DNA of 64,000 nucleotides. It comes from Escherichia coli (lineage in GTDB: Bacteria; Pseudomonadota; Gammaproteobacteria; Enterobacterales; Enterobacteriaceae). Below, in pieces: positions 32,044 through 53,017 of this stretch (positions within the stretch are counted from its first letter, which is position 1; each line of letters starts with the position of its first letter). The DNA is taken from assembly GCF_050320075.1 (NCBI RefSeq), contig NZ_CP190018.1. One strand, written 5' to 3'. The notes under the pieces were generated by a model, which searched no databases, was not told the origin of the DNA, and saw only the letters and a list, made by a program, of their open reading frames with translations. The translations under genes and the position numbers were made by a program.

Positions 32044-32270
32044 ATCATCGTTGTTTTTGTTGCAATAGTAGAATACGCGTATTTATTCCTCCATCTCTAT
32101 TAATAACGGCAATAAACTGTTCACTTCACTGATATTTAAAATATGTATCCTTTTCAAGCTGTTCAGCGGCGTAAGAAAAAGTATTAATTATGAATTCGAT
32201 GATTTAACCATATCTGTCTGATTGGTAATCATCCGTGATTAATGCTGGTCTATTGATTACGCCAGAACCC
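32044..32270 (+). repeat. degenerate second copy of the ykgR 3' region joined directly to a ykgO 3' end-like segment
   Basis: 32044-32160 aligns by eye (roughly 80 percent) with 13155-13270, and 32170-32270 with 13951-14065 (encodes ...AVQRRKKKY* versus ykgO ...AVQGRKKKR*); the ykgM/ykgO body is absent between them. Confidence 0.7.
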
Positions 32271-33177
32271 TCTCTAGCTTATTCACCGCCGCCACATACT
32301 TCGCCGGATTTTTATCTTTAAGCACCGCCAGATTGCGTTGCTTCCAGCGAATAGCCGGAAGATGCTGAATTTCAGGATAGCGATACCGCGACCAGTCAGG
32401 GCTGTTTTGCTTAAAACTGAGCAAGAACTCGCGATCCAGATCCGTAAGATGTGACTTCAACGCCTGCGGCAGCAAAGTCGTTACTGACAGAAGCGATTCC
32501 AGCGACGTTTCCTGTTGCGTCATCCCTGAAAATTCCTGCGCGTACAACGTGGCGATCCGCTCTGTATCCCAGTTTGGAGCCAGCAACTCGGCGATGGGGC
32601 GGGGATGGCCTGCCAGATAACAAAGAAAACCGTCAAAGATCTCCCGCATCAGTCCCGGTTTCTCCAGCATATTCAGCACATCAAACAGATCGCGCGGGTG
32701 CTGACGATCAAGCGCAGCGCAGATTTTACCGCCATAAAGATCCGCCAGCGAGACGACACTCATGGTGGTGAAGCCATACTCCATTTCCACACGTTCGCAC
32801 ACAGGCATTTCTGCCGGAGGCAACAACAGCCCGCGCCAGACCGGGCTAACCTCGATCTTAATCTTTGCATCAGCGGTATTCACAATGATGCGCTTTTCAT
32901 CCGCTTTATTTTCCTGCCGAATCGCGGTGATCCCCGGTCTGCCGTTCAGCGATGCAGTAATCCTCTTCAAAGCGTCGTTGATAGCCGCCAAATCAGTATC
33001 GCGATCCGCAAAGCTCTTGTACGCCAGATCAATATCCACCGACAGACGGGGAAAATCCTGCACAAACAAATTGATTGCGGTGCCGCCTTTCAACGCGAAA
33101 CAGGACTCCTTCGCCACATACGGCAGAGCGGCCATCAACAGTTTGACCTGCCGGGCATAGCTATCACGCAGATCCAT
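32257..33177 (-). CDS. AbiEii/AbiGii-family nucleotidyltransferase toxin (type IV TA / abortive infection)
   Basis: 306 aa; NTase motifs (ALKGGTAINLF, DIDL); overlaps the upstream antitoxin gene by 14 nt. Confidence 0.85.
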   Translation of the reverse strand: MDLRDSYARQVKLLMAALPYVAKESCFALKGGTAINLFVQDFPRLSVDIDLAYKSFADRDTDLAAINDALKRITASLNGRPGITAIRQENKADEKRIIVNTADAKIKIEVSPVWRGLLLPPAEMPVCERVEMEYGFTTMSVVSLADLYGGKICAALDRQHPRDLFDVLNMLEKPGLMREIFDGFLCYLAGHPRPIAELLAPNWDTERIATLYAQEFSGMTQQETSLESLLSVTTLLPQALKSHLTDLDREFLLSFKQNSPDWSRYRYPEIQHLPAIRWKQRNLAVLKDKNPAKYVAAVNKLERVLA

Positions 33178-33967
33178 CTTCGACTCCTTCCGGTTTAAAT
33201 GCGCGTGGAACAGTAATTTGATAATCCGGCTCCAGCCAGCCGCCGGGTATGATTTGCCGCTTTCCCGTACCTGTTTCTATACCGCTTTGATCAATATACT
33301 GAAAATAAGGGTGTCCATTACGCCGGGCAAGGTAAAGCATCACCCGGTTGGTTTTAACCGAATGGCTGGCGCGAAGCAGTGCCTGCAATTTGCGTGGGCT
33401 GAGAAGATTCAACCCCTGAAACAGAGCATCGGCATGTTCGAACGAGATTAACGAAGGAACGCCGCAGGCGATCTCATACGCGGCCAGTTCCGGAACACTG
33501 CCTGCTAACTGGCGGTCGCCAATTTTCAGTTCCGTAGTAAATGGCGTTACATCAGCGGTAAGGCCTGACGTATACAGCGTGACAAACGTTGCGGATTGTT
33601 CAAAGGCAGAAAACCATCCCGGCAGTTTGACGTAAGCCGGAAGCGCGAGCCAGACCTGCGGCTTACCCTGTTCGGTATAGTGCGCATGACCCTGAAGCGC
33701 AAGGCTGGTTAGCCCCGCCACCCGAACAGGCTTTTCCCACTGCGATTGCAGGCAGTAAACCGCATCCACCCAATCCGGTTCACGACCCGTCCGGCAGTAT
33801 ACGCCGTGAGCGATCCGCCTGAGCCAGCCATTCTTCACATAGAGATAAGAGAGCTTACGATCTATGCCGTTGCGGGTAAGCCATGACTGGAGCAGCACCT
33901 GGCCGGGTAGCGTGTGCTGCATCAGCCAGTTTAGATAGTTTGGCAACTGTCGCCTCTGAATAGACAT
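33164..33967 (-). CDS. AbiEi-family antitoxin / transcriptional regulator
   Basis: 267 aa, N-terminal winged-helix-like region; immediately upstream of and overlapping AbiEii. Confidence 0.8.
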   Translation of the reverse strand: MSIQRRQLPNYLNWLMQHTLPGQVLLQSWLTRNGIDRKLSYLYVKNGWLRRIAHGVYCRTGREPDWVDAVYCLQSQWEKPVRVAGLTSLALQGHAHYTEQGKPQVWLALPAYVKLPGWFSAFEQSATFVTLYTSGLTADVTPFTTELKIGDRQLAGSVPELAAYEIACGVPSLISFEHADALFQGLNLLSPRKLQALLRASHSVKTNRVMLYLARRNGHPYFQYIDQSGIETGTGKRQIIPGGWLEPDYQITVPRAFKPEGVEDGSA

Positions 33968-34261: not shown

Positions 34262-37200
34262 ATGACATATCAGGCAATTTTCACTGGCTGGGATGATCTG
34301 ACGATTGAAGACCTTCTGGTCGCTTACCGGAAAGCAAAAGCCGATAGCTTCTTTGAGAATACATTTCCTGTTGCTATCAAATTTGCCGAGTATGAGCAGG
34401 AATTACTTGAAAACCTGCAAAAACTCTTAGATCTTTTGCAGAGCGAAGATGGATTCAGTAGCAATAAGAAGTTGATTGGCAAATTTCGATTGTTACCGAA
34501 AAAATTAACCACAAAGAAAAAACATGAATCCCAAAATGGACACGTCCACTTTTCTAATCCTAAACGAGCAGCCGACCATTTATTTAATAATTTTGATCTG
34601 ATACCAGAGTTTCGTATTATTGGTGACTTCCCGGTTGATAGTCACATTATCTCTGCACTATGGATTAACATGGTCGGGCATAAATTTGATGCCAGCTTAG
34701 ATAACTGTTGCTATGGCGCGCGGCTAAAGCGTATTCGTAATGATGAATTATTTAGCAATGAGCAGGATAATCCATTCCATATCAGTGCCGTGGGTTCTTT
34801 TAGCCCCTACTTCCAGCCCTACCAAAAATGGCGTGGTGATGGCTTAAAAGCTATACGTGACGAGTTGGAAAAAGATCGTGACATTATCGCCGCCTCACTG
34901 GATTTAAAAAGTTACTATCATTTTATTGATCCACTGGCTATAACCTCTGATGATCTCTATAACACACTAAACATAAAACTGACTGAGGATGAAAAAGCGT
35001 TTACTGCACAGTTAGCAGTATTCTTAAAGCACTGGTCTGACGGCGCAGCGGCATTTGGAAAGAAAATAGCGTACAAAACACCTGTTATTAATGGTGGTCT
35101 GGTCATTGGATTAACAGCCAGTCGGATCATTTCAAATATATTGCTACACCATTGGGATAAATTAGTCATTGAAAAACTATCACCAATTCACTACGGTCGT
35201 TATGTCGATGATATGTTCCTTGTAATACGCGATACAGGGACAATTACTAATAATCACGAATTTATGTTATTGCTGCAAGATAGGCTTGGCAATGATTGCG
35301 TTTATTTGAAAAACGAGCAAAAACAAATATGGCAAATACAGCAGGGCGAGCATTTCCAGGGTAAGACCACCATCCAGTTACAATCCGATAAGCAAAAACT
35401 TTTCGTGCTTCAAGGGAGGGCTGGAATAGACCTGCTCGACAGTATCGAAAAGGAGATCTACGAGCTTTCTAGTGAACACCGCTTGATGCCTTCACCGGAT
35501 CAACTGGAACACTCCACCGCAGCTAAAGTCCTTTCCGCTGCCGGTAGTGTAGGTGAAAATGCCGATACTCTGCGCCGTGCGGATGGATTAACCATTCGTC
35601 GTTTGGGCTGGTCACTGCAATTACGCTACGTTGAAACACTGGCACGAGATCTGCCTCCAAGTGAATGGAAAGAACAGCGGGAAGAGTTTTATCAGTTTGC
35701 CTACAACCATATTCTTAGGGCTGATAATCTATTTGCACATTTTAGTTATCTGCCAAGGCTGCTTGGCTTTGCTATCAGTATGAATGAATGGCAGCACGCG
35801 GAAAAAATTGTACTTAAAGCTTACGAATCCATCAACCTGTTGGCATCGGTGATTACTTCAGGTAAGGAAGTGAATATAAATGGTTGCAAAACTCGAGCAG
35901 TAAATGATCTTTGGCGCTGTATAAAAGGCACATTAAGCTGGCTATTTGTTGATGCAGCGACACGATATTACAGTCCTGACAGATTATTTCTTGATAAACG
36001 TTCAAAGAAAGAAGAGTGCCTTGCGGATACATTTTTTAATCATATTTCACAAAGTCTGACGAATCTAAAGGATTTACTGGATCTTCGCTTTGATTCAGCA
36101 GATTTTTATTTAAAAGCGCCATTGGTAGCTCGAGCTGATTTAGCAAAGGAACCTTATAAACAGATCGTAAAGAGTCAGTCGGCAGAAAAACTTGTTAATC
36201 AGCGTGATAGTAAAAAAGAAGTTAAAATACTGAAATTAATGAGCGACTCATCGCTTATTGATATTGACGTTATTAAGCTATTTTTGAAATCAACCAAGAA
36301 TACCCGACTGGAAAAAGTGGCTAAAGGAAATCGTAAGAACGAAAGTTACCTACCTTACATTTTCCCTACACGTCCTTTAACACCCGCTGAAATATCAGAA
36401 CTGGCCCCCGAATGTGTTGGATTACCCTCCACATCCGACAAAAAACCAGATGAGAGACCGTCCACCATTTGGGCAAAATATACTCAAGCATTACGCGGAG
36501 TATGGATCAAACCGACGTTGCTAGCATCGGAGCAGGACTCAGATGAAGCGACAAAAAAAGCTCGGCCTAAGAAATTCATTCATATTGGCACAGACAGGAA
36601 ACATAAAGTTGTCGTTGCGCTAACCAGCATTAAAACAGAGGAGGACGACTGGGCTAAAATGGCCTGCAATAAATCTAACTTGTCCCGTTCAAGGTACCAG
36701 CGGATTTCTGAACTGGTTAATGCAACATTGAAACTATCTCCTAAACCTGATTATGTTTTATTCCCTGAGCTTTCAATCCCGTTACGCTGGGTTAACAGTA
36801 TTGCTGATCGTTTGAGTTCGGCGGGTATCAGTCTAATTGCGGGAACAGAATACCGCCACTTAGACGATAATCAACTGAAGAGTGAGGCCGTACTTGTCCT
36901 TTCAGATAACAGACTCGGCTATCCAGCGAGTGTCAAAATATGGCAACCCAAGCTGGAACCCGCCGTAGGTGAAGATGAGGCATTATTTTCAATTTATGGT
37001 AAGTCTTGGGATTCGACACTTAATGTTAAACAACGTAAGCCGGTATATATTCATCACGGCGTCAATTTTGGCGTTATGATTTGCTCTGAACTCCAGAATA
37101 GTAAAGCGAGGATCCGTTTTCAGGGCGCACTCGATGCATTAATGGTATTGAGCTGGAATAAAGATCTAGATACGTTTGCATCGTTGATTGAATCAGCAGC

Positions 37201-37471
37201 GCTGGATATTCATGCCTATACTATTTTAGTGAATAACCGAAAATACGGCGATAGTCGCGTACGTTCCCCGGCAAAAGAACCCTTTATGCGTGATATTGCT
37301 CGTGTGAAGGGCGGTGATAATGACTTTGTGGTCGCTGCAACGCTGGATATCGACTCGTTAAGGGCATTTCAGAGCAGGGCAAAACGCTGGCCTAAAGGCG
37401 GCGATAAATTCAAACCGTTACCTGAAGGATTCCAGTTGGCAAAGAACCGCAAAAAGCTACCGCCAAAATAA
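34262..37471 (+). CDS. reverse transcriptase fused to a C-terminal nitrilase (carbon-nitrogen hydrolase) domain; DRT type 1 / UG1-like defence RT
   Basis: 1069 aa. RT motif A ASLDLKSYYHFID, motif B GGLVIGLTASRIISNILL, motif C YGRYVDDMFLV (YxDD). C-terminal domain has nitrilase catalytic-triad contexts FPELSIP (Glu) and GVMICSE (Cys). AT-rich relative to flanks. Confidence 0.85.
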   Translation: MTYQAIFTGWDDLTIEDLLVAYRKAKADSFFENTFPVAIKFAEYEQELLENLQKLLDLLQSEDGFSSNKKLIGKFRLLPKKLTTKKKHESQNGHVHFSNPKRAADHLFNNFDLIPEFRIIGDFPVDSHIISALWINMVGHKFDASLDNCCYGARLKRIRNDELFSNEQDNPFHISAVGSFSPYFQPYQKWRGDGLKAIRDELEKDRDIIAASLDLKSYYHFIDPLAITSDDLYNTLNIKLTEDEKAFTAQLAVFLKHWSDGAAAFGKKIAYKTPVINGGLVIGLTASRIISNILLHHWDKLVIEKLSPIHYGRYVDDMFLVIRDTGTITNNHEFMLLLQDRLGNDCVYLKNEQKQIWQIQQGEHFQGKTTIQLQSDKQKLFVLQGRAGIDLLDSIEKEIYELSSEHRLMPSPDQLEHSTAAKVLSAAGSVGENADTLRRADGLTIRRLGWSLQLRYVETLARDLPPSEWKEQREEFYQFAYNHILRADNLFAHFSYLPRLLGFAISMNEWQHAEKIVLKAYESINLLASVITSGKEVNINGCKTRAVNDLWRCIKGTLSWLFVDAATRYYSPDRLFLDKRSKKEECLADTFFNHISQSLTNLKDLLDLRFDSADFYLKAPLVARADLAKEPYKQIVKSQSAEKLVNQRDSKKEVKILKLMSDSSLIDIDVIKLFLKSTKNTRLEKVAKGNRKNESYLPYIFPTRPLTPAEISELAPECVGLPSTSDKKPDERPSTIWAKYTQALRGVWIKPTLLASEQDSDEATKKARPKKFIHIGTDRKHKVVVALTSIKTEEDDWAKMACNKSNLSRSRYQRISELVNATLKLSPKPDYVLFPELSIPLRWVNSIADRLSSAGISLIAGTEYRHLDDNQLKSEAVLVLSDNRLGYPASVKIWQPKLEPAVGEDEALFSIYGKSWDSTLNVKQRKPVYIHHGVNFGVMICSELQNSKARIRFQGALDALMVLSWNKDLDTFASLIESAALDIHAYTILVNNRKYGDSRVRSPAKEPFMRDIARVKGGDNDFVVAATLDIDSLRAFQSRAKRWPKGGDKFKPLPEGFQLAKNRKKLPPK

Positions 37472-37817
37472 GAAACTGATTTTCGCTATTAATAATCAGG
37501 GTATTTTTGCGTGAGATGTTGGTAAACATGATGTAGCCCTTGCCACTCATGACCAATCGCAGTATCTTTCTCCCGCGCCTGCAAAATCAGGCGTCGGGAT
37601 TAGCCTCCTGAAGAAATCTTATCGGCGACACATGACGCGCCAGCGTCTTTTTTTGTGTTGTTCGCACGGTTACATCTCAATGGTGGGCCGGGCGGGGGCG
37701 TCGCAAGACGCGCCAGTGTCCGATAAGGCTGGTAAGGCTAACCCTGCCCGGTTCCACCACCCGCGAGATTAGCCTCTCCGGTGGTGGCTTGAACACCCAC
37801 TTATCGGAGGTTGCCCT

Positions 37818-38288
37818 ATGGCTACAATCCTCACCACTGACAGCGATTTACTCGATCTATTGACCGTCCCCTTCAATGCCACCACGGATTTCACTGTCCT
37901 TGCTGACTACTGCGCCCGCTTTGCCGAAACCCTGATTGAAACCGACGATCCAGCGCTACGACTGGCGCTCTGCGGGCGGCTTCACGCGGCTCTTGCGCTA
38001 CTGCAACCCACACTACACGACCCCATCCCACCGCATCTTACCGAAAGCCTGACCGTGGATACCCTTCCCGCCACACCAGAGCACTTTATTTCCGAACCTG
38101 ATTCCTTGTGCGAATACTGCCTCGCACTACTCCAGCTTCTGCTGGAACGTCCGGCGGAACCAAAAATGGAGCAAACCCTGACCGGGCTGCTGTGTGAGCT
38201 GGTCTGGTATTTCACGGAAGGACTCAAAGCCCCACGCTGGCTGCGTACCGCCGACGGCGTAAAATTTATCAGCGAGGTGGCCGCATGA
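37818..38288 (+). CDS. hypothetical protein (156 aa, acidic, Leu/Ala-rich), GC-rich
   Basis: ORF with good coding statistics; its stop overlaps the ATG of the downstream Ner-like fragment (ATGATG), suggesting an operon. Confidence 0.5.
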
Positions 38289-38410
38289 TGCAACAGGACT
38301 GGCATTCCGCCGACATTATTGCGGTGCTGAAAAAGCGGGGAACGCCTCTGGCGGCACAGAGAAAAACTCATTGCGGAAGCGCTGTAAATATCGCCAGAAA
38401 TCATCTGGCC
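38285..38410 (+). pseudogene. Ner/Nlp-like HTH regulator gene, frameshifted
   Basis: [25 protein letters not shown]... resembles the Ner/Nlp N-terminus (DWHxADIIAxLxKxG); continuation (REKLIAEAL) is in another frame. Confidence 0.5.
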
Positions 38411-38637
38411 TTCAAGGTACTTTGATAGCAAAGGCAAGCAGGCTGGTTCAGTCCAGTGTTTCTCTTCTTGCATTTTCAGAAATGGGAGGCTGGGAGTCTA
38501 TCGAAATGGTTCGTCGATATGCTCACCTCGCGCCTAATCACCTTACCGAACACGCACGGCAAATAGACTCAGTCCTGAACCCATCGGTCCCAAATTTGTC
38601 CCAGTCAAAAAATAAGGAAGGTACTAATGATGTGTAA
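38410..38637 (+). pseudogene. 3' fragment of a tyrosine-recombinase (phage integrase) gene
   Basis: Encodes ...[35 protein letters not shown]..., the C-terminal catalytic-Tyr region of phage integrases, with no N-terminal domains. Confidence 0.7.
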
Positions 38638-38789
38638 CTTATTGATTTTAATGGTGCGATAAGAGGAATGAATATTGCAAGTTAACGCATTGATTTATAA
38701 TAGATTATTATATTCAAAAAATATAACTATACACATATCTATACACACTGCGCGCATCGCTTGTTTTTCGCACAATTAAAAATAAGAAA

Positions 38790-39080
38790 AAAGTTTTTTT
38801 TCGAAAGAACTGTTCACACTGTTCACCTTTCTGTTTTCTCCTTTTATTTCAGTTTGATAGGTGGTGAATAATGGGTGAATGGTGAACATTCGATTCTTCA
38901 CCTCCGGCATTCTGCCGGTGTGACTCATACCGGTGATTAATCCCCCGTACTGAAATCACACAGGGAGAAAAAAAGTTTTTTTTGATTTGATTGTTCACAC
39001 TGTTCACCTTTCATTTTTCTCTTTTAATTTCAGTGTGATAACGGGTGAATATACGGTGAAGGGTGAACAGTGGATTGTTC
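38790..39080. repeat. P4-type crr (cis replication region): two ~100-bp direct repeats, each with TGTTCACC / GGTGAACA iterons
   Basis: Units at about 38790-38890 and 38973-39075 are near-identical and each contains TGTTCACACTGTTCACC plus inverted GGTGAAYA copies. Confidence 0.8.
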
Positions 39081-39098
39081 ACCTTCGGGGAATTCAGG

Positions 39099-39126
39099 GA
39101 TAAAAAAAGACCGGCAGATGCCGGTC
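39099..39126 (-). terminator. rho-independent terminator downstream of alpha
   Basis: Hairpin GACCGGCA / TGCCGGTC with an adjacent T-run on the minus strand. Confidence 0.55.
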
Positions 39127-39142
39127 AGATGAGTCATGATGG

Positions 39143-41476
39143 TCAGGTTGTTGCAGGGTCGTCACATTTTGGCAGCCAGTCGCCGTAGCTTTCCTCTTTC
39201 AGCGTCAGGTTGGTCTGTATCCCCTGTTTGGTATGGCGCTTCTCGTAATTCAGTCCGTATTCCTTCAGCATCACCGGCAGCCCCAGCCCGAACATTTTCA
39301 GACTGAGTACATTCCGGTAGCCGTTTGCCTCCATGTAGGCCAGATAGGCGTGATAGAGGTATTTACGGTAATTACGCGGGATGATACTGGCGTTCCCCAT
39401 ATACATGCCGCTGGTCTGCGGCAGGGTTTCCAGATAGCCGATAAAATCAAACGTCGGGTCGGCATCCCGTTTGATGTTCAGCGCCTCGTCTGAGTTCTGC
39501 TGGGACTGAAGCAGTGACCGGGCGAGCATCGGGTCGCTGAACTTCTGCATCAGGTGACGCACGATGACCGCCAGCTCGCGGGTGATTTTGTCCTTAAGCT
39601 GCGGGTCGCGCTCCTGCGGGGCTATCTGTTCCGGGAAGTGAATAATCACCCGCCGGCGTGACACGCCGCCGCTGCGGTCGGTGAAGCGCATCGGGTTATT
39701 GTTCACGGCCAGAATTACCGCCGGGATATGCGTGGAGTATGCATCCCGGTATTTCGGGTCAACGGACACCGCATCGCCGCCGGTGATGGCCTTGAGTCCG
39801 GCACCGTCGCCGCTCCATTTTTCCTGGTCCGGCAGGCGTATCAGTGAGAAGCCAGTTAACGCGGCACGTTCACGCGGGGATTCCAGCGTCTCGATGGTGG
39901 CCGACGTGGCGTTATCCTCCCCGGCCAGCAGGGTGGCTATTTCGGCCATGATACTTTTGCCGCTGCCGCCGGGACCGGTCACCTCCAGAAAGAGCTGCCA
40001 GTCGTAGCGGTTTGCCAGCACCATAAACAGTGCGGCCAGAATCACGTCGCGTTTTTCCGCACGGCCACCGGCGGCACGGTCAAGCCAGCGCCAGAACGCG
40101 GGGGCGTGGGTCTCCAGCGTTTCACCGTCCACCGGCGGGGTGAAATCCACATCGCACAGGGTGCGCATCCAGTGTGACGGACTGTGCGGGTGGAACGTGC
40201 CGTTCTGCGTGTCGAGCACGCCGTTACGAAAGCCAATCAGGCGGCGGGAGGGGGCTTCCTGCTGCGGAATAATCAGCTTCAGGGTGTCCACCACGGAGGC
40301 CACCTTCCCGGAGGAGAACGGCGCGCGCAGACGCTGAAACAGCCCGGCCACATCCCGGGCAAAGTCCTGTGGTGGCAGCACCTTCCAGACACCATTTTCA
40401 TAACGGGACAGAAGCTGGCCGTTGGCATCGACCGCGAGCGCCTCGCCGTAATGCTCATAGATACGCATGGCCTTTTCGCTGGTACTCATGGCGGAAAACT
40501 CCGCTTCGCTCATGGTGTCGAACGGGCTTTCAGCCGGTGGCCGGATGGCATCATAAATGGCCTTACGGGTGGCTTCCCCGCCGTACTGCGTGAAGGCATC
40601 ATTCCAGTCACCGAAGACCGGCGGCAGGGCAACAACGCCCTCACACGCATCTGCGGCTGCGGCGGCTTTTTTCTGGCCGTCACCGCTGAGGTCACGGTCT
40701 GCGGCAAGGACAATCTGACAGGCCGGATGCTTCTGCCGGGCAAGGCTGGCCAGAGAAAGGAGGTTCACGGAAGAAAGCGCCACCATCACCGTTTCACCGG
40801 TCAGGTGATGTACGGTAAGTGCGGTCGCGTATCCCTCCGCTATCCACAGACGTTTTCCGGCCTGATTCTGTCCTTCAAGGGTGTGACAGGTGCCCCTGAC
40901 CTGTCCGCCTTTCAGGGTGCGCTTACGGCCGTCAGCACTGATTAACTGAAGGTTAACCAGTTCGCCGCTGTCGTCATACAGTGGCACCACAAGGTCACCG
41001 GCACGCCAGCTCACGCCACCGGCTCTGTGTGTGCCGGTCAGCATCCGGCATTCCCGGCCGGGAAAGCCCTTGCGGGTCAGGTAGGCGTTACCGGTTCCGG
41101 GACGGGTTTTCGCCATCAGGGTTTGTGCCAGTGCGGCGGCGTTCTTCCGGGCAGCGTCTGTTTCAGCACCGGCGGCAGCCGTCACTGCCGGGTCAGCCGG
41201 GGGCAGGCTGCCGGTCACGGCAGCCACCTTTGCTGCCGCGTCGGACGGGGAAACACCAAACACCTTTTCAACCAGTTTCAGGCCGTCACCGGCACCACAC
41301 TGATTGCAGTACCAGGTGCCGCGCCCCTCCCTGTCATCAAAACGGAAGCGGTCACTCCCGCCACAGACCGGACAGGGCTGATGACGGTTTTTCAGCACCT
41401 GAATCCCCAGCGCCGGGAGAATACGCGGCCAGTGGCCGAGCGCATGGCTGACGGTGGCGGTTACGTTCATTTTCAT
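39143..41476 (-). CDS. alpha: P4 alpha-type primase-helicase
   Basis: 777 aa; N-terminal zinc-binding primase motif (CPVCGGSDRFRFDD...WYCNQCGAGDG), central and C-terminal helicase region; iterons on both sides. Confidence 0.9.
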   Translation of the reverse strand: MKMNVTATVSHALGHWPRILPALGIQVLKNRHQPCPVCGGSDRFRFDDREGRGTWYCNQCGAGDGLKLVEKVFGVSPSDAAAKVAAVTGSLPPADPAVTAAAGAETDAARKNAAALAQTLMAKTRPGTGNAYLTRKGFPGRECRMLTGTHRAGGVSWRAGDLVVPLYDDSGELVNLQLISADGRKRTLKGGQVRGTCHTLEGQNQAGKRLWIAEGYATALTVHHLTGETVMVALSSVNLLSLASLARQKHPACQIVLAADRDLSGDGQKKAAAAADACEGVVALPPVFGDWNDAFTQYGGEATRKAIYDAIRPPAESPFDTMSEAEFSAMSTSEKAMRIYEHYGEALAVDANGQLLSRYENGVWKVLPPQDFARDVAGLFQRLRAPFSSGKVASVVDTLKLIIPQQEAPSRRLIGFRNGVLDTQNGTFHPHSPSHWMRTLCDVDFTPPVDGETLETHAPAFWRWLDRAAGGRAEKRDVILAALFMVLANRYDWQLFLEVTGPGGSGKSIMAEIATLLAGEDNATSATIETLESPRERAALTGFSLIRLPDQEKWSGDGAGLKAITGGDAVSVDPKYRDAYSTHIPAVILAVNNNPMRFTDRSGGVSRRRVIIHFPEQIAPQERDPQLKDKITRELAVIVRHLMQKFSDPMLARSLLQSQQNSDEALNIKRDADPTFDFIGYLETLPQTSGMYMGNASIIPRNYRKYLYHAYLAYMEANGYRNVLSLKMFGLGLPVMLKEYGLNYEKRHTKQGIQTNLTLKEESYGDWLPKCDDPATT

Positions 41477-41490
41477 GGTGTTGTTCTCCT

Positions 41491-41811
41491 TCAGTGCAGT
41501 ACCGGCGCTTTTATGTGACGGGCACAGAGTTCATCCATCACAACCAGCCCGAGAAAGGACAGCGACGGCGCGGCCTTCAGGGGGCCGGATTCCATTAAAT
41601 CTTCCAGCAGGGCACAGGCTATCTGACGCCCTTTTTCCTCACCGTGCTGGCGCAGATAAAAGCCTTCCAGCTCAGCGGCGATGGCCGCCTCCAGTGATTC
41701 AAGGGTGAGATGCGGGTAGCGGTGCTGACGTTCGCACACGGTCAGCCAGGCACAGGCGACAGCGCGACGGTAAAGGGCTGCGCGTAAGACGGGCGGTAAG
41801 GGTGTTTTCAT
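41491..41811 (-). CDS. P4-family conserved hypothetical protein (106 aa)
   Basis: ORF directly upstream of alpha in the left operon. Confidence 0.55.
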
Positions 41812-41946
41812 TTGTTTTCCTCCCTGTGACAGATGACTGCATTCCGTGCCGGTTGCATTAACTGATAAGGCATATCTGCGTCTCCTGAAGACGTGCGTAT
41901 CCCTGCGCGAATACGCACATTTAATTTTTCGGGTGTCGTTTTTTAA

Positions 41947-42402
41947 TTACAGATAATTGCGGTAACTGTTATCCGGGGTGATTTCCGGGTCAGGCTCCGT
42001 GCGGGGAATTTCCCGCCATTCCCGCGCCACCGGTGCCGCCCGGCTGGCCGGAACAGTGTCCTGCGGGTAAATATCCAGATATTTCTCCCGCCATTTCTGT
42101 AATTCCGGGTCTCCGGCCATTTCTTTCAGTACCGCATGCCGGTTTACGGGGCTGCGTTTAAACAGGTCAGGACGGTCACAGGTAAATTCCCGCAGAAAAC
42201 GCCCCAGCGGGATGTCTGTGGTGCGCCCGTCAGCGAGGATACGCACAAGGATACTGAATTTACGGCGGTACGGGTTCCAGACAATGTCCGGGCAGCGGTA
42301 CGGCATTTCCCACGGAATACCGTCTTCCAGAATGCCGACCACGGCCACATCGGGAAAACCGGCAGAACGGTAAATCTCACCGGGCTGGGGAAAATCAAAC
42401 AT
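41947..42402 (-). CDS. P4-family conserved hypothetical protein (151 aa; P4 orf151-like position)
   Basis: ORF in the alpha operon; size and position as in P4. Confidence 0.55.
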   Translation of the reverse strand: MFDFPQPGEIYRSAGFPDVAVVGILEDGIPWEMPYRCPDIVWNPYRRKFSILVRILADGRTTDIPLGRFLREFTCDRPDLFKRSPVNRHAVLKEMAGDPELQKWREKYLDIYPQDTVPASRAAPVAREWREIPRTEPDPEITPDNSYRNYL

Positions 42403-42682
42403 GCGTCCTGTCTCCCCGGTCTTTCTGCTGGGCGAGAAAATCGCGGCACAGGCCTTTGGCTTTCAGTTCATTCAGCACAAAATCAATATCTTCATTCAGG
42501 TAGCTGAAAATATGCGGAATGTAGAGCTGATGCAGGCCGGAGAGTTCACGGTGAATCAAATCACCCCCAACAAACCGGGATACGGCGCTGGCGCGGTTGA
42601 GCTTATGGTAAGCCTCAATGCTGAGGTGTTCACGGGCGTCATGACGCGCTGAGACGGTCTGAGGGGCTTTTTTATTACGCAC
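42395..42682 (-). CDS. P4-family small protein with probable GTG start (95 aa; epsilon-like position)
   Basis: GGAGG RBS 6 nt upstream of GTG at 42682; ORF ends overlapping the orf151-like start; the 177-aa ORF in the track is probably an over-extension. Confidence 0.4.
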
Positions 42683-42875
42683 GGGACACCTCCACCACCG
42701 GCAGACGGGCAGCAAGGGAGAGCACATAGTCACGGACAAGGGAACGGCGGGCGCTGCGTTCATCACCGGCGACGGTGCGAAGCATACAGATACGGGGATG
42801 ACGATCTGCGCGACGGACAGCCGCAAACACAAAGACAAATTCAGGGTGTGAGGTGGTAAGGGTTGTAGCCATGAT
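42675..42875 (-). CDS. P4-family small hypothetical protein (66 aa, [26 protein letters not shown]...)
   Basis: Short ORF immediately downstream of the immunity-RNA region; stop overlaps the next start. Confidence 0.4.
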
Positions 42876-42883
42876 GGCAGCCT

Positions 42884-43136
42884 CCTTGAAGTAACAGTTA
42901 CAGCTACCACTGGAGTTCCTACGCTCATGGGTGGTAGCCCGGACGGGGGTAGGAATACCGGCCTTCAAGGAAACCGGCCAGCCCGAAGGCTGCCCCGCCC
43001 GGACCACCATTATCTGACAGAGGCTACGGTTTAAAAACCACAGCCAGAAAAACAGGTGTGCCGAAGCAACGACGTAAAAAAAGACGCATGGCGCGTCATA
43101 TGTCGCCTTGAAGTAACTCGGGTTCCTACGCCCGGC
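42884..43136 (-). ncRNA. P4-type RNA immunity region (CI-RNA-like seqB flanked by complementary seqA / seqC-like repeats)
   Basis: Direct repeats CCTTGAAGTAAC...GTTCCTACGC at 42884-42924 and 43106-43136, and between them (42949-42971) GGTAGGAATACCGGCCTTCAAGG, complementary to both; in the untranslated leader of the left operon. Confidence 0.5.
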
Positions 43137-43225
43137 TGCCGATTTTGCGGCAGCGGAAAAACTATATCCGCAAATGCCGGAAAAAGGCAAGCCAGAAAAA
43201 GGGACTTTTTGCAGAACAGGCATCA

Positions 43226-43492
43226 TCATGCGTCATACCCCCGTTGGCGTCCGGCAATGCGGCCGGCCATCCATGCGGTGACTTCAGAGTGCAGCCAGGC
43301 CACATTTTTACCGCCAAGACTCACCTGCGGCGGAAATTCCCCCTTACGGATGAGTTCATAGATGGTCGAGCGTGACAGGCCGCACAGGTGCATCACTTCC
43401 GGCAGACGTAAAAAACGCTCCTGCGTGATGTCCGGCAGCGGCATCAGTGGCGTCACAGGGGCGGGAGACGGGGAAGAAAAAACAGCTTGCAT
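43226..43492 (-). CDS. alpA: AlpA-family phage regulatory protein (small MerR-like HTH)
   Basis: [50 protein letters not shown] is the AlpA signature; true start may be the internal Met (43444). Confidence 0.85.
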
Positions 43493-43769
43493 CGGGCTAC
43501 CTCGTTAATGTCCATACAGCACCGGATAAGTCCGTCCGGCTTCTGGTAGCGCTTTATTTTGTGAATATTTTCAGCAGACGCAACAGGGGGAATTTGTTCC
43601 GGCAACCTTACAATGGCTGTGTGTTTTTTATCCATCTGGACTGGAAGGGTCTCAAAGGGTTCTGAAGGACCTGGAATTTTTTATAGTGAAATACAAATTG
43701 TTTTTTCTTATTTATTTCAGTGAATTAATAAAAATAAACAGTGATAAACAGCATAAAAAGCCCATCAAC

Positions 43770-43880
43770 GGGTGAACAGTGGTGAACAGACGGTGAACAG
43801 TCATTACTGCGATTGTTCACCCTTTAACTTACTGTATTACTTATCTTTTTTCTTATGGTGAACAGAGGTGAACAGTAAAA
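43770..43880. repeat. P4-type origin of replication: six GGTGAACA / TGTTCACC iterons
   Basis: GGTGAACAGTGGTGAACAGACGGTGAACAG (43771-43800), TGTTCACC (43815-43822), GGTGAACAGAGGTGAACAG (43858-43876), within AT-rich DNA between alpA and sid. Confidence 0.8.
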
Positions 43881-44043
43881 TATAAAAAAACAAACAGTAA
43901 GCCGGTTTTTCCTGCGACCTTTTCCTGGCTTGCCGGTCTGAGGATGAGTCTCCTGTGTCAGGGCTGGCACATCTGCAATGCGTCGTGTTGCTGTCCGGTG
44001 TACGTCACAATTTTCTTAACCTGAAGTGACGAGGAGCCGGAAA

Positions 44044-44778
44044 ATGTCTGACCACACTATCCCTGAATATCTGCAACCCGCACTGGCACAACTGGAAAAG
44101 GCCAGAGCCGCCCATCTTGAGAACGCCCGCCTGATGGATGAGACCGTCACGGCCATTGAACGGGCAGAGCAGGAAAAAAATGCGCTGGCGCAGGCCGACG
44201 GAAACGACGCTGACGACTGGCGCACGGCCTTTCGTGCAGCCGGTGGTGTCCTGAGCGACGAGCTGAAACAGCGCCACATTGAGCGCGTGGCACGCCGGGA
44301 GCTGGTACAGGAATATGACAATCTGGCCGTGGTGCTGAATTTCGAACGTGAACGCCTGAAAGGGGCGTGTGACAGCACGGCCACCGCCTACCGGAAGGCA
44401 CATCATCACCTTCTGAGTCTGTATGCAGAGCATGAGCTGGAACACGCCCTGAATGAAACCTGTGAGGCGCTTGTCCGGGCAATGCATCTGAGCATTCTGG
44501 TACAGGAAAATCCGCTCGCCAACACCACCGGCCATCAGGGCTACGTCGCACCCGATAAGGCTGTCATGCAGCAGGTGAAATCATCGCTGGAACAGAAAAT
44601 TAAACAGATGCAAATCAGCCTCAGCGGCGAGCCGGTTCTCCGGCTGACCGGACTGTCAGCGGCAACACTTCCGCACATGGATTATGAGGTGGCAGGCACA
44701 CCGGCACAGCGCAAGGTGTGGCAGGACAAAATAGACCAGCAGGGAGCAGAGCTTAAGGCCAGAGGACTGCTGTCATGA
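44044..44778 (+). CDS. sid: P4 Sid-type capsid size determination (external scaffold) protein
   Basis: 244 aa from the internal Met (MSDHTIPEYLQPALAQLEKARAAH...), coiled-coil rich; followed by delta and psu. Confidence 0.85.
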   Translation: MSDHTIPEYLQPALAQLEKARAAHLENARLMDETVTAIERAEQEKNALAQADGNDADDWRTAFRAAGGVLSDELKQRHIERVARRELVQEYDNLAVVLNFERERLKGACDSTATAYRKAHHHLLSLYAEHELEHALNETCEALVRAMHLSILVQENPLANTTGHQGYVAPDKAVMQQVKSSLEQKIKQMQISLSGEPVLRLTGLSAATLPHMDYEVAGTPAQRKVWQDKIDQQGAELKARGLLS

Positions 44779-45275
44779 TTTACTGCCCGTCGTGTGGACA
44801 TGTTGCTCACACCCGTCGCGCACATTTCATGGACGATGGCACCAAGATAATGATTGCACAGTGCCGGAATATTTATTGCTCTGCGACATTTGAAGCGAGT
44901 GAAAGCTTTTTCTCTGACAGTAAAGATTCAGGAATGGAATACATTTCAGGCAAACAGAGATACCGCGATTCACTGACGTCAGCCTCCGGCAGTATGAAAC
45001 GCCCGAAAAGAATGCTTGTTACCGGATATTGTTGTCGGAGATGTAAAGGCCTTGCACTGTCAAGAACATCGCGGCGTCTGTCTCAGGAAGTCACCGAGCG
45101 TTTTTATGTGTGCACGGATCGGGGCTGTGGTCTGGTGTTTAAAACGCTTCAGACCATCAACCGTTTCATTGTCCGCCCGGTCACGCCGGACGAACTGGCA
45201 GAACGCCTGCATGAAAAACAGGAACTGCCGCCAGTACGGTTAAAAACACAATCATATTCGCTGCGTCTGGAATGA
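44775..45275 (+). CDS. delta: P4 Delta-type late transcription activator (tandem Ogr-like zinc fingers)
   Basis: 166 aa; two CxxC...CxxC zinc-finger units (MIYCPSCGH...CRNIYC and YCCRRCKG...CTDRGC). Confidence 0.9.
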   Translation: MIYCPSCGHVAHTRRAHFMDDGTKIMIAQCRNIYCSATFEASESFFSDSKDSGMEYISGKQRYRDSLTSASGSMKRPKRMLVTGYCCRRCKGLALSRTSRRLSQEVTERFYVCTDRGCGLVFKTLQTINRFIVRPVTPDELAERLHEKQELPPVRLKTQSYSLRLE

Positions 45276-45348
45276 GGGCTGCCGGTTAACACCGGCCGTC
45301 GCCGCACACCGTATTTTTATTCTTCAGCATGATGAGAAAGAGATAACG

Positions 45349-45921
45349 ATGGAAAGCACAGCCTTACAGCAGGCCTTTGACACCTGTCAGAATAACAAAG
45401 CAGCATGGCTGCAACGCAAAAATGAGCTGGCAGCGGCCGAACAGGAATATCTGCGGCTTCTGTCAGGAGAAGGTAGAAACGTCAGTCGCCTGGACGAATT
45501 ACGCAATATTATCGAAGTCAGAAAATGGCAGGTGAATCAGGCTGCCGGTCGTTATATTCGTTCGCATGAAGCCGTTCAGCACATCAGCATCCGCGACCGG
45601 CTGAATGATTTTATGCAGCAGCACGGCACAGCACTGGCGGCCGCACTGGCACCGGAGCTGATGGGCTACAGTGAGCTGACGGCCATTGCCCGAAACTGTG
45701 CCATACAGCGTGCCACAGATGCCCTGCGTGAAGCCCTTCTGTCCTGGCTTGCGAAGGGGGAAAAAATTAATTATTCCGCACAGGATAGCGACATTTTAAC
45801 GACTATCGGATTCAGGCCTGACGCGGCTTCTGTGGATGACAGCCGTGAAAAATTCACCCCTGCGCAGAACATGATTTTTTCGCGTAAAAGTGCGCAACTG
45901 GCATCACGTCAGTCTGTGTAA
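45349..45921 (+). CDS. psu: P4 Psu-type polarity suppression / capsid decoration protein
   Basis: 190 aa; last gene of the sid-delta-psu operon, followed by cos. Confidence 0.85.
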   Translation: MESTALQQAFDTCQNNKAAWLQRKNELAAAEQEYLRLLSGEGRNVSRLDELRNIIEVRKWQVNQAAGRYIRSHEAVQHISIRDRLNDFMQQHGTALAAALAPELMGYSELTAIARNCAIQRATDALREALLSWLAKGEKINYSAQDSDILTTIGFRPDAASVDDSREKFTPAQNMIFSRKSAQLASRQSV

Positions 45922-46085
45922 AATTCCCCGAAAATCCGCCTGTTTTTACTGAAAAAAGCCATGCATCGATAAGGTGCATGGCTTTGCATGCGTTTTCCTG
46001 CCTCATTTTCTGCAAACCGCACCATTCCCGGCGCGGTCTGAGCGTGTCAGTGCAACTGCATTAAAACCGCCCCGCAAAGCGGGCG

Positions 46086-46104
46086 GGCGAGGCGGGGAAA
46101 GCAC
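46086..46104 (+). other. cos cohesive-end sequence of P2/P4 type
   Basis: GGCGAGGCGGGGAAAGCAC matches the 19-nt P2/P4 cohesive end as I recall it; position just downstream of psu fits P4. Confidence 0.65.
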
Positions 46105-46122
46105 TGCGCGCAACAATGATGA

Positions 46123-47517
46123 TTATGATTTCATTTTATCTGCAATATCTTCTAAGGAATCAAAGAATGCTTTGACAAAGTTGTCTTTATTAACAGTAGT
46201 AAAGTTTTGATTGTAAAATCCTACACATGCAGAAAAAATTGCTCTGCAAGTTAGCTCATTATATTTAGATGAATATAATGGTTCGACTCCACGATACACG
46301 GACCAAGAACCATGAGCTATATCAGACCTAGTCTTATACATTTCCTGAGCCACTCTAGCCCATTTTTTTTCATCTTGATAATAAATAGAAACTAATGAAG
46401 AAACACGACTTACGAAGTTCTTTGTTGTAGATGAATCCTTTTTTTCGCTACTTAGACTAACCAGCCGTTCAAGAGCCGTTGTTAATTTTACTATACGAGA
46501 ACTTTCATCCTTATCCTGTTGTGCGCTACTAAATAAATAGATAGCATCAATTAGCCTGTCTGCAATTACAGAGTTTTCATGAGGTTCTATCGCCAACTCT
46601 ATTAACCGAGAAAGAACTAACCCTAAGTCAGATTTGTAATCATCTTCAAACTTATTCCAAAACTCACCGCTATTGGCTATAGTCCCTTTAGTTGAGTAAT
46701 GATAGTTAAACATTTCGTTTGGTTTCTTGGAAAGATAAAAGCCGTCATAATTTGGGTAAGGATCTGTTGATATACTTAAAAAGTATGGGGAGATATTATA
46801 GTGCACACCAAATAGCTGTAGTATCCCAACCACAAAACATGCAATATTTTTAGCGATTCTCTGCCTACTTAACTTAGAGCGTTTGCTAACAGGGATTTTT
46901 AGGTAGTGTTTATAATGAAATTTATGAGAAGAACAAAATTTCTTAGCTAAATCAAGTTGTTGCTCAGTAAAATCATCACTAATAGTTAAGTGCATTTTTT
47001 CTGCCGATATAATATCAACTCGGCCAATAGACATTATATCTCGTTCCAACCCGTGAGCTAAAATAGGATAATAAAAATCCTCTTCAGACATTTCTCTCCT
47101 TGTTAGTTTTAATGTTTTATTTAGGAGGATAGTACATCCACTCCTGTCGCAACTGCCGTTCTCAACCCAAATATGCATAAACAATATTTTCTTAAGATTA
47201 CTTAAAAATTCATCGGTAGTAACTAGCATTTCTAAGCGATTTGATTTTATAAATCTAGCCGAAATAGCATATAACTTCTCATAAGAGGCATATGATAGAT
47301 GAATTTGAGTTCTAGAAAGATCTGTTCTTCCTTTTATTAGTTCATATGGTGCATCTATGGTCATTCCCAATGAACCAAAATTACCATTATATTCTTTTTT
47401 GTAAAATTCCATAAAATTAGATGAGGATGTTAACTCTTTATTTATTCTAACAGCCTCATCAAGAATAAATTTAAAATCTTTAACGTCTTCCAAACTGGCA
47501 CTCATCATTTTCACCAT
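46123..47517 (-). CDS. uncharacterised 464-aa protein in the P4 psu-int hotspot; C-terminal HEPN-like Rx4H motif; candidate anti-phage effector
   Basis: Strongly AT-rich versus the GC-rich flanking P4 genes; sits between cos/psu and int; C-terminal region contains RSDIAHG (R-x4-H-G, as in HEPN RNases); no Walker or other obvious motif; start overlaps the int 3' end. Confidence 0.7.
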   Translation of the reverse strand: MVKMMSASLEDVKDFKFILDEAVRINKELTSSSNFMEFYKKEYNGNFGSLGMTIDAPYELIKGRTDLSRTQIHLSYASYEKLYAISARFIKSNRLEMLVTTDEFLSNLKKILFMHIWVENGSCDRSGCTILLNKTLKLTRREMSEEDFYYPILAHGLERDIMSIGRVDIISAEKMHLTISDDFTEQQLDLAKKFCSSHKFHYKHYLKIPVSKRSKLSRQRIAKNIACFVVGILQLFGVHYNISPYFLSISTDPYPNYDGFYLSKKPNEMFNYHYSTKGTIANSGEFWNKFEDDYKSDLGLVLSRLIELAIEPHENSVIADRLIDAIYLFSSAQQDKDESSRIVKLTTALERLVSLSSEKKDSSTTKNFVSRVSSLVSIYYQDEKKWARVAQEMYKTRSDIAHGSWSVYRGVEPLYSSKYNELTCRAIFSACVGFYNQNFTTVNKDNFVKAFFDSLEDIADKMKS

Positions 47518-48685
47518 TTAAATTAATAATAAAATCACTATACCACTGCATCATTTTCTTTCGATCTTCTATATACTGTGCATGATTATATACACCACGT
47601 ATCGTGTTTTTATCCACATGAGCCAACTGCATTTCAATCCAAGCAGTATTAAAACCATTTTCATGGAGTATTGTTGATAATGTATGCCTAAATCCATGTC
47701 CTGTAAGTTTTCCCGCATAGCCTATGCGTTTGATAAGTTGATTAACACTTGCCTCACTCATAGGTTTGTTTGGATCATTCCGTCCCGGGAAAACATAACG
47801 ATAATTTCCTGTCATAGATTTAAGTTCATTAAGAAAGCCTAATACCTGGGTCGATAAGGGGACTAGGTGCGGCCTACGCATTTTCATTTTTTCGGCAGGA
47901 ATTTCCCAAATAGCGTTGTCCAGATCAAACTCTTGCCATAATGCCGCTCGCAACTCGATAGTTCTAACCCCAGTAACCATCAATAATTTTGTGGCAATCT
48001 GAACAAGTCGGCTTCCTGCATAACTATCTAAAGCACGCAGAAAATCAGGTATCTCATCTGATTTTAAGAAAGGAAAATGATTTGATTTGTGTACTTCGAG
48101 GGCACTGGACAGATCTGCCGCAGGATTAAACTCTGCTCTTCCGGTAGCAATAGCATATCGAAAAACCTCTGAGCAACGTTGCCGCACTTTGCGCATTTTC
48201 TCCAATGCACCACGTTTCTCAATTTTACGCAGCACATTTAGCAATTCTAGCGGTTTAATTTCCCCTACAGGCCTCGTCCCTACATACGGAAAAATATCAT
48301 TTTGGAACGCCTCAATAATATCTGAGGCATACCCAGCAGACCATTTTGCCGACTTCATCTGATGCCACTCTCTGGCAATCTTTTCGAATGCGTTCTCAGA
48401 TTGAATTCGTAATGCTAATTTTTGTTCTTTTCGAACCTCACTAGGATTTTTTCCCTCGGCCACTATTTTTCTGGCCTCATCACGGCGGGCGCGAGCTTCA
48501 GCAAGTGTGATCGTTGGATAAACACCAAGCGAGATCATTTTAGGTTTACCTGCATAGCGATAACGAAATCGCCAGCTTTTACTTCCATTTGGCTCTACAA
48601 GTAAAGACAACCCTTGCCCATCCCCAAGTGTATAGGCTTTAGCTTCAGGTTTAGCACGGCGAATCTGCATATCATTTAGGGGCAT
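47480..48685 (-). CDS. int: P4-type tyrosine integrase
   Basis: 401 aa; N-terminal arm-binding region (MPLNDMQIRRAKPEAKAYTLGDGQGL), C-terminal catalytic region (HGFRHT...YNHAQY); start faces the tRNA fragment 165 bp away. Confidence 0.95.
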   Translation of the reverse strand: MPLNDMQIRRAKPEAKAYTLGDGQGLSLLVEPNGSKSWRFRYRYAGKPKMISLGVYPTITLAEARARRDEARKIVAEGKNPSEVRKEQKLALRIQSENAFEKIAREWHQMKSAKWSAGYASDIIEAFQNDIFPYVGTRPVGEIKPLELLNVLRKIEKRGALEKMRKVRQRCSEVFRYAIATGRAEFNPAADLSSALEVHKSNHFPFLKSDEIPDFLRALDSYAGSRLVQIATKLLMVTGVRTIELRAALWQEFDLDNAIWEIPAEKMKMRRPHLVPLSTQVLGFLNELKSMTGNYRYVFPGRNDPNKPMSEASVNQLIKRIGYAGKLTGHGFRHTLSTILHENGFNTAWIEMQLAHVDKNTIRGVYNHAQYIEDRKKMMQWYSDFIINLNGENDECQFGRR

Positions 48686-48849
48686 GTGTATAGAATTCCA
48701 AAATCGAACAGGAACATATACATAATCCTATACACATTTAGTACTGGATTCTACTGGAAGGTTATGGACTAACACGGACAACGATAACAAAAAATCTTTT
48801 ATAAAACAGTATGCTTATGGACAAATACGGACGTTTGAAGAAGTTGGGA

Positions 48850-48896
48850 TGGTGCCGATAATAGGAGTCGAACCTACGACCTTCGCATTACGAATC
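48850..48896 (-). tRNA. 3' fragment (~47 nt) of a thrW-type tRNA-Thr(CGU); attachment-site core, not a complete tRNA
   Basis: Minus strand reads GATTCGTAATGCGAAGGTCGTAGGTTCGACTCCTATTATCGGCACCA (anticodon loop with CGU through T-arm to CCA); the sequence 5' of it cannot form acceptor and D stems. Confidence 0.8.
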
Positions 48897-50926: not shown

Positions 50927-51009
50927 TTCTTTCCCAGATATGGAGTGAACATCTGCGAAAATGTAGCACATTTCAAGGTAAACAAGAAGCGCATCCATGC
51001 GCATTTTCA

Positions 51010-52929: not shown

Positions 52930-53017
52930 TTCATTGCTCCAGACGAATGATATGATGCAACCATGATGTGATTGCATACCGAAATGGTACTATTGAGTAT
53001 TTATCCAGTAGGTTACG

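Follow-up and report, generated by a model that had tools for sequence, protein, structure and literature searches.

The thrW gene is a recognised integration hotspot of Escherichia coli (PMC7545054). The closest described systems for the locus analysed here are the satellite P4, the ptwF duplicate of K-12 and the P22/lambdoid phages that use thrW (HK542, mEp213, HK75, P22 and L). In the annotated P4 record the integrase gene int is followed by arm repeats, a 20-bp attP core that copies the 3′ end of leuX, further arm repeats, crr, a terminator and alpha. In K-12, ptwF forms the distal end of the cryptic prophage CP4-6; it duplicates part of the thrW 3′ end and marks the distal border of an element integrated at thrW. 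For P22-type attP sites, the statement given in PMC8022706, which cites Lindsey et al. 1992, is that they rebuild thrW on integration.

The window, i.e. the whole stretch of 64 kb that was analysed, is identical (100%) between 37500 and 39200 to E. coli YZLc1-3 (NZ_CP123240.1); window positions are obtained by subtracting 3,927,581 from the positions of this record. It runs from the ecp/pao genes towards thrW-proA-proB and is thereby reversed relative to K-12. The segment 38285-38667 consists of dead-gene remains of older mobile elements at the thrW hotspot and closes at an att scar. We are confident of the overall account, according to which debris at thrW is followed by the distal att of a thrW-specific P4-type satellite at 38668-48849.

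This satellite shows the same order as the attP region of P4, opened at the core. As in P4, whose core reads TGGTGCCGAAGGCCGGACTC on the equivalent strand, the core is a copy of a tRNA 3′ end that begins at the edge of the T loop and includes CCA. Unlike P4, with its leuX target and 20-nt core, the satellite targets thrW and has a shorter, imperfect core, in which 7 + 10 bases match on the two sides of a one-base gap; its Int is only 38% identical to that of P4, and a HEPN-domain gene replaces gop-beta-cII. The K-12 ptwF flank is of the same kind as the flank in the window, a lambdoid integrase 3′ tail followed by TTGATTTTAA. However, ptwF comprises about 49 nt with both Cs kept, belongs to the unrelated element CP4-6 with a different integrase (IntF, 466 aa), and adjoins an integrase remnant of only about 75 nt and of the P22-type allele. 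The integrase fragment of the window and its 14-nt spacing match the int-attP layout of the P22/lambdoid phages at thrW, whereas these phages differ from the window in that it keeps only the last 67 integrase codons, as a mosaic fused to an unrelated pseudogene.

Integration targeted to a tRNA gene is here an ordinary case of a well-understood phenomenon and leaves current understanding unchanged. The two pseudogenes were already annotated by PGAP, and the att core is easily deduced by comparison. What is added are the exact borders of three elements stacked at thrW: an old island remnant, the satellite (38668-48849) and a P22-like prophage from 48896 on.

Remnant of an older island

The following features lie upstream of the integrase fragment:

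37575-37653, + strand: isrK-like RNA (Rfam, above gathering score)
37676-37764, + strand: C4 antisense RNA (Rfam, above gathering score)
37818-38288, + strand: intact ORF of 156 aa (ORF list), overlapping the start codon of the Ner-like gene (ATGA)
38285-38432, + strand: pseudogene of the Ner/Nlp family (HTH_35; Pfam, comparison with an intact homologue, PGAP)

The preliminary description had placed a frameshifted Ner/Nlp-like helix-turn-helix gene at 38285, which was confirmed. The frame-joined conceptual translation of 38285-38432 matches Pfam family PF13693 (HTH_35) with an E value of 4.4e-15 and 55.9 bits (cut-off 25). The match falls into two stretches and skips roughly the middle fifth of the profile; it passes the profile cut-off for family membership, while an intact reading frame over the whole domain is absent. 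Compared to the intact homologue of 80 aa (L016:9459-9701), the gene has an internal deletion of ~50 nt that leads to the frameshift, carries an in-frame stop (TAA, 38385-38387) in place of the GAA of the homologue, and lacks its 3′ end, homology stopping near 38430. For the same genome PGAP lists a 'helix-turn-helix domain-containing protein, frameshifted, incomplete', i.e. a pseudogene. The family relationship to Ner of phage Mu, to Nlp/SfsB and to HTH_35 is clear, and in related islands the same ORF is followed by intact homologues of 80 aa. Unlike the Ner/Nlp proteins, however, the gene in the window is a pseudogene by internal deletion, premature stop and loss of the 3′ end. The debris on the thrW side, made up of this gene and the integrase fragment, is expected to have no function.

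For the 156-aa ORF 646 homologues were retrieved by protein search, a Pfam search matched no family, and a locus search of viral contigs revealed no relatives. The ORF is conserved together with the Ner-like gene, the intact HTH_35 gene of 80 aa coming after the ORF in three related loci (L016-L018). The intact island at tRNA-Asn (L016) has the order isrK, C4, ORF153, HTH_35 gene (80 aa), EFASI RNA, further genes, P4-family integrase and tRNA, and its isrK-C4-ORF-HTH_35 module is directed towards the tRNA, the orientation also seen in the window. Because order and direction of the module agree, the remnant in the window can be read as the distal part of an L016-like island that has lost its integrase end; the isrK-like and C4 RNAs at 37575-37764 are its immunity-type RNA module. 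An inversion of the remnant relative to thrW was rejected, since the module of L016 normally reads towards the integrase/tRNA end. Likewise, the remnant (37472-38432) was rejected as a second copy of the P4-type satellite, DNA comparison giving a 40-nt isrK match only. In L016 the EFASI RNA (Rfam RF02957, 100 bits) is located at 10389-10517, just downstream of the intact Ner-like gene; the equivalent region is deleted in the window. A search of the window for further thrW fragments, for instance at the left border of the old island, found none.

Besides isrK, C4, ORF156 and the truncated Ner-like gene (Ner′), the remnant contains an AbiE pair and a defence gene of the reverse transcriptase type. 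The AbiEii/AbiEi pair, both defence genes, occupies 32257-33967 on the − strand, and the reverse transcriptase of 1,069 aa, which has a C-terminal extension, is encoded at 34262-37471. In ST131 (L015:1-6658) a type I restriction-modification operon replaces the reverse transcriptase between the same AbiEi gene and the ash/ORF156 module. With either gene set found between the same neighbours, this slot appears to hold variable defence cargo within a fixed remnant.

Integrase fragment of mosaic origin

Directly beside the Ner-like pseudogene follow:

38434-38637, + strand: tail of a lambdoid thrW-specific tyrosine integrase, 67 codons and stop (Pfam, alignment, PGAP)
38638-38651, strand not applicable: 14-nt spacer between integrase stop and tRNA 3′ end, the same in intact lambdoid prophages at thrW

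About 70 terminal codons of an integrase had been proposed, in good agreement with the 67 codons and stop present. The encoded residues (ASRLVQ...EMVRRYAHL...TNDV*) include the region of the catalytic Tyr, EMVRRYAHL. The Pfam Phage_integrase profile is matched at positions 137-171 of 172 with 23.7 bits, which is under the cut-off of 27.1; the complete catalytic domain (R..HxxR..Y) is absent, its HxxR box lying upstream of the breakpoint. PGAP annotates 38434-38637 as 'integrase, incomplete, missing N-terminus', a pseudogene. At the DNA level 38479-38667 shares 96.8% identity with the 3′ end of an intact integrase gene of 372 aa beside thrW (L011/L012), which adjoins thrW in lambdoid prophages of O157:H7 FRIK944 and of 504239. 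The 14-nt gap between integrase and thrW recurs in L002, L003 and L011.

The two parts of the fragment resemble different alleles. The stretch 38479-38637 is 97.5% identical to the FRIK944/504239 integrase allele and 59% to the ST131-type remnant, and identity to the FRIK944/504239-type gene is 97.5-100% over 38479-38651, whereas 38433-38478 resembles the ST131/P22-type allele (85% against 57%). The breakpoint falls within the conserved block GAAATGGGAGG. By these identities the fragment combines two integrase alleles, and we regard this mosaic as direct evidence for repeated integration and loss at thrW. Such a mosaic is what the deletion of a later prophage by recombination between its integrase gene and an older fragment would leave. 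The fragment would thus be a clear example of a prophage lost by recombination with an older remnant, a process that swaps the allele of the remnant and probably the tRNA 3′ end as well.

The fusion of Ner′ to the integrase remnant (int′) is present in 803 of 5,426 complete E. coli genomes, in two versions. ST131 carries the same fusion, with 97.5% identity to the window up to the junction, followed by the other allele of the integrase tail and by thrW of the T..A type (see below). Repeated integration and decay, as suggested in the preliminary description, is borne out by the island remnant fused to a mosaic integrase remnant and by the intact satellite and the intact P22-like prophage stacked at the same tRNA gene.

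In K-12 (L010:5230-5310), 504237, O55:H7, ST131 and 7/2 a lambdoid integrase 3′ tail directly flanks the ancestral thrW 3′ end (also L004:1400-1487). These tails comprise about 75 nt or about 200 nt and represent different alleles. Since such a tail was found in every E. coli examined (the five named), the 'chromosomal' side of the thrW att site is itself old phage DNA.

The att core is orthologous to the thrW 3′ end

The debris ends at the first of two sequences derived from thrW:

38652-38667, − strand (tRNA sense): distal att core of the satellite, 16 nt, the last 17 nt of thrW minus one C, with the G allele (orthology)
48850-48895, − strand: partial copy of thrW with the T..A allele, 46 nt reaching from its 3′ end as far as the anticodon loop; identity to thrW nt 31-76 is 100%

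The core reads TGGTG-CGATAAGAGGA, or TGGTGCGATAAGAGGA when written ungapped. The integrase stop codon is located at 38635-38637 and ATGGTGCGATAAGAGGA starts at 38651, the tRNA-derived part being 38652-38667. The position of the att-like sequence close to the stop codon had been recognised before, but the distance given as 12 bp is 13 nt when measured to 38651.

Genomes with an empty site reveal what the core is. In strain 7/2 and many other genomes the window sequence 37500-38667 is matched with 99.9% identity and one gap of one base, and tRNA-Thr, proA and proB follow directly; the alignment passes from the debris through the 14-nt spacer into TGGTGCCGATAAGAGGAGTCGAACCTCCGACC..., which is the real thrW. 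The debris flank together with the G..C allele of thrW occurs at ≥99% identity in 248 genomes with no satellite in between. Identity of the window to satellite-free genomes stops after ...GAGGA at 38667, where the foreign satellite arm starts. Because the debris of the empty-site genomes runs straight into thrW at this point, 38652-38667 is the orthologue of the final 17 nt of thrW, and we take this orthology as the decisive evidence that the att-like match is real. The core and the copy at 48850-48895 form a direct repeat, both being the reverse complement of the tRNA on the + strand.

The P4-type satellite

The DNA between the two att sequences is organised as follows:

38668-48849, strand not applicable: P4-type satellite of 10.2 kb (P4 identity, att ends)
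38668-38787, strand not applicable: P′ arm, non-homologous to P4, P4 homology beginning at 38788
38785-39088, strand not applicable: crr (cis replication region), two direct repeats of ~120 nt with TGTTCACC iterons, 96-97% identical to the annotated crr of P4
39143-41476, − strand: alpha primase-helicase gene, 777 aa (ORF list, PGAP, 97.6% DNA identity to P4)
47480-48685, − strand: intact integrase of 401 aa with the three P4-type domains Arm-DNA-bind_3, Phage_int_M and Phage_integrase
48686-48849, strand not applicable: P arm, with CTATACACA copies at 48685-48693 (−) and 48728-48736 (+)

Over ~7.3 kb (38788-46113) the window is 97.3-97.6% identical to P4 DNA (positions 4291-11624 plus 1-28), and this stretch runs through crr, alpha, epsilon, cI, ori, sid, delta, psu and cos. 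Rfam matches to C4 and isrK at 42927-43154 and the PGAP product names agree with the P4 type. Accordingly, the gene set of a P4-type satellite, with alpha primase, crr/ori iterons, cI/C4 RNA, sid-delta-psu and cos, was found to be present. At 43701-43842 there is a third cluster of TGTTCACC-type iterons, which resemble the crr repeats; it corresponds to the annotated ori of P4.

In the 2.7 kb from cos to att (46114-48849) a HEPN-domain gene and the integrase gene stand in place of gop-beta-cII-int of P4. With P4 identity outside the int/att region and a different integrase and core, 38668-48849 represents a P4 variant with a thrW-specific int/att module. The integrase gene lies beside the proximal att, and arm repeats are found on both sides. 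The 9-mer CTATACACA occurs in four exact copies in the 64 kb, all within the two att arms; those of the P′ arm are located at 38727-38735 and 38739-38747. We regard these repeats as putative arm-type binding sites of the integrase. The HEPN-domain protein (PGAP) is encoded by an ORF of 464 aa at 46123-47517 on the − strand, between cos and int at the position of gop-beta-cII, and is probably swapped anti-phage cargo.

The excised junction (P arm, core and P′ arm) was searched for in the viral contigs of IMG/VR without a match, so that site-specific integration of the satellite is deduced from its structure. For the excised form an attP of the sequence ...GAAGTTGGGATGGTGC[-/C]GATAA[G/T]AGGAATGAATATT... 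is predicted, and for the restored chromosomal site ...TTGATTTTAATGGTGC[C]GATAA[G/T]AGGAGTCGAACC....

Related satellites share the core and its one-base gap

The satellite family occurs in ~170 complete E. coli genomes. Nine other genomes or contigs contain related thrW satellites in which this 16-nt core lies equally far from P4-type crr repeats. Near-identical satellites are found between a yagP pseudogene (yagP′) and thrW in six complete genomes and two contigs of the viral catalogue, and in all of these TGGTGCGATAATAGGA directly precedes the same arm sequence. Beyond the complete genomes, a scan of IMG/VR for the integrated distal junction gave only two instances, of the K-12 type. A more divergent satellite in O55:H7 CB9615, 89% identical over the int-proximal att region, differs in arm and flank. 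It has the same distal core, likewise minus one C, while its proximal copy has CC.

The related satellites examined lie in three kinds of flank, and all of them have a distal att that lacks this C. The gap is therefore a constant property of the satellite family and not a sign of decay, and would most simply reflect the attP core of the satellite itself. Since the gap is constant in the distal att and CC in the proximal att, the crossover is expected to the left of the gap, in the 7-bp sequence ATGGTGC, which is common to all attP-side and attB-side sequences. The earlier designation of the core as a 'degenerate copy' of the tRNA 3′ end holds in so far as the copy is imperfect, but not in the sense of degeneration by decay, as the gap belongs to the satellite family and the G is the local thrW allele.

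thrW alleles and the origin of the core bases

Two alleles of thrW exist, which differ in a compensatory base pair of the T stem, G..C versus T..A on the + strand of the window (L002:13153-13228 and L003:39299-39374). Among the complete genomes searched, the G..C allele occurs only with the integrase remnant of the 7/2 type, which suggests that it may have been installed by a phage attP.

Position 38663 of YZLc1-3 is a G, whereas all other satellites examined have T, including the closest ones with 99.4-99.6% identity over the 475 bases beside the core. Every other genome with debris of the 7/2 type has a G..C thrW, the G being paired with the compensatory C in the T stem. A search of 5,426 genomes for 7/2-type debris combined with a T..A thrW found none, the best match keeping both G..C mismatches. 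The G thus agrees with thrW of all other genomes that carry this debris, which points to a resident origin. In YZLc1-3 itself, both the 46-nt copy and the complete thrW are T..A, and the G at 38663 is found beyond the one-base gap, on the side of the satellite. Single-crossover histories were considered for both integration orders, with the crossover at either end of the core, and none of them gives gap and G on the left together with CC and T..A on the right.

One variant of the account derives every core base on the right-hand side of ATGGTGC, the G at 38663 among them, from the attP of the satellite, with strand exchange inside ATGGTGC and the G as a private T>G change; the excised satellite circle would then carry GGGATGGTGCGATAAGAGGAATGAAT (with G). 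That the one-C gap is present in every distal att and that the proximal att always has CC agrees with it by placing the crossover left of the gap. Distal cores do indeed gain private changes, e.g. GTTAAT in 2017.06.05CC, and the T..A of the proximal 46-nt copy fits a target other than G..C. Nevertheless, the T of all of the closest satellites and the G..C of all other genomes with this debris would have to coincide with a private G, for which the chance was roughly estimated at well under 1%, and we consider this variant unlikely. A history with a T..A target and a G from the satellite has no supporting genome among the 5,426.

Within the account of debris and distal att at thrW, possibilities for the mixed pattern are a wider overlap with piecemeal repair of the heteroduplex, a private T>G change, or later homologous recombination that replaced the right-hand part within the satellite. 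That the distal att is a true patchwork, with the gap from the attP of the satellite and the G from the resident tRNA allele, seems quite improbable to us. If it were true, the integrase would exchange strands over an overlap of ~8 bp, (C)CGATAA(G/T), tolerating a one-base indel and an edge mismatch, and the heteroduplex would be fixed piecemeal by short-patch repair. The cleavage positions of an uncharacterised integrase could then be read directly from natural att polymorphism. A mixed origin of the core bases could help to map the crossover position of this integrase family.

Chance resemblance and limits of the satellite

In a gapped alignment to the 3′ half of thrW, the core scored second-best among 2,556 scanned windows of 100 nt (both strands), after the copy at 48850. 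As a 16-mer with up to 2 mismatches it occurs once in the window, 0.03 occurrences being expected. Based on ungapped words, BLAST found an 11-nt match only, with an E value of about 0.8, and for a 17-mer with 3 mismatches allowed the expectation is 0.3 per window. Taken by themselves, these statistics provide moderate evidence for the att-like match. The latter two values would leave room for a chance resemblance of 38651-38667 to the thrW 3′ end, unrelated to att; yet with base-for-base orthology to the real thrW 3′ end, about 250 genomes with identical debris, the low expectation for the 16-mer and the same core terminating related satellites in nine other genomes or contigs, such a coincidence has a negligible probability. 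The proposed similarity to the thrW 3′ end is therefore better than chance.

It is just as hard to credit that the debris belongs to the satellite, with the true left end further left than 38652: debris and satellite are contiguous and an isrK/C4 module of the type found within the satellite lies just upstream, but the debris occurs in about 800 genomes without any satellite, satellites with the same end adjoin the completely different flank yagP′, and remnant and satellite have almost no DNA similarity. The core at 38652-38667 is thus the left att of the P4-like element, as had been tentatively proposed, given the empty sites, the end of identity at 38667 and the core shared with the nine related satellites.

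The P22-like prophage and the intact thrW gene

Beyond the proximal copy the window is occupied by one further element:

48896-64000, − strand: late-gene end of a P22-like prophage (PGAP annotation of NZ_CP123240.1)

The 46 nt at 48850-48895 are at the same time the proximal att of the satellite and the left att of this prophage. They correspond to the prophage end known from P22/lambdoid integration at thrW. The late genes encode an O-acetylase, a tailspike, ejection proteins and a P22-type capsid and portal. The prophage extends about 24 kb past the window to an integrase, a 14-nt spacer, the complete thrW and then proA. When its ends were joined in silico to attP, the product was found contiguous, at ~95% identity over 449 bp, in HK542, mEp213, mEp043, ECP1, HK75 and mEpX2; the matching region of the free phages is annotated as attP of the thrW/ptwF type.

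ARAGORN detected no tRNA gene in the 64-kb window, in which only the 3′ fragments of 16 nt and 46 nt are present. The earlier statement that the thrW 3′ end lies 10 kb away is correct for the sequence match but not for the gene, of which only the 46-nt fragment is found there. The complete thrW is located at 4015298-4015373 of NZ_CP123240.1, outside the window and about 39 kb beyond the 46-nt copy. That the proximal copy comprises only 46 nt and the intact gene lies so far on is explained by integration of the P22-like prophage at the anticodon-loop position.

Proposed history of the locus

In the first step an island of the isrK-C4-ORF156-Ner type would have resided at thrW; its intact relatives have a P4-family integrase by their tRNA. 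A lambdoid prophage would then have entered the same tRNA gene, and one deletion, with one endpoint within the Ner-like gene and the other at codon ~306 of the lambdoid integrase, would have produced the series Ner′, int′, 14-nt spacer and thrW. The fused debris is inherited in about 800 of the 5,426 genomes. In a second step, a further lambdoid prophage would have arrived in one lineage and been lost by recombination of its integrase gene with the resident fragment. Thereby the last ~160 bp of the fragment would have been replaced, and probably also the 3′ part of thrW, with the phage-borne G..C. In the third step the satellite, specific for thrW and not for leuX, would have entered the thrW 3′ end by site-specific recombination, a reaction that fits the observed structure, splitting the site into the distal att at 38652-38667 beside the debris and the proximal att from 48850 onward beside the integrase gene. 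The P22-like prophage would have been inserted at the anticodon-loop position of the same tRNA gene. The 16-nt core would be one of the two sites that the satellite integrase, together with an excisionase, would recombine for excision.

Other observations in the window

A single ORF of 915 aa at 24458-27205 spans the expected paoB and paoC genes, and PGAP annotates paoC as 'incomplete, missing N-terminus'; the ORF may represent an in-frame deletion that fuses paoB to paoC. Furthermore, an Rfam match to the IS009 sRNA (187.8 bits) is located at 22546-22746 on the − strand, between ykgJ-like and yagU-like ORFs, and is unrelated to the att site.
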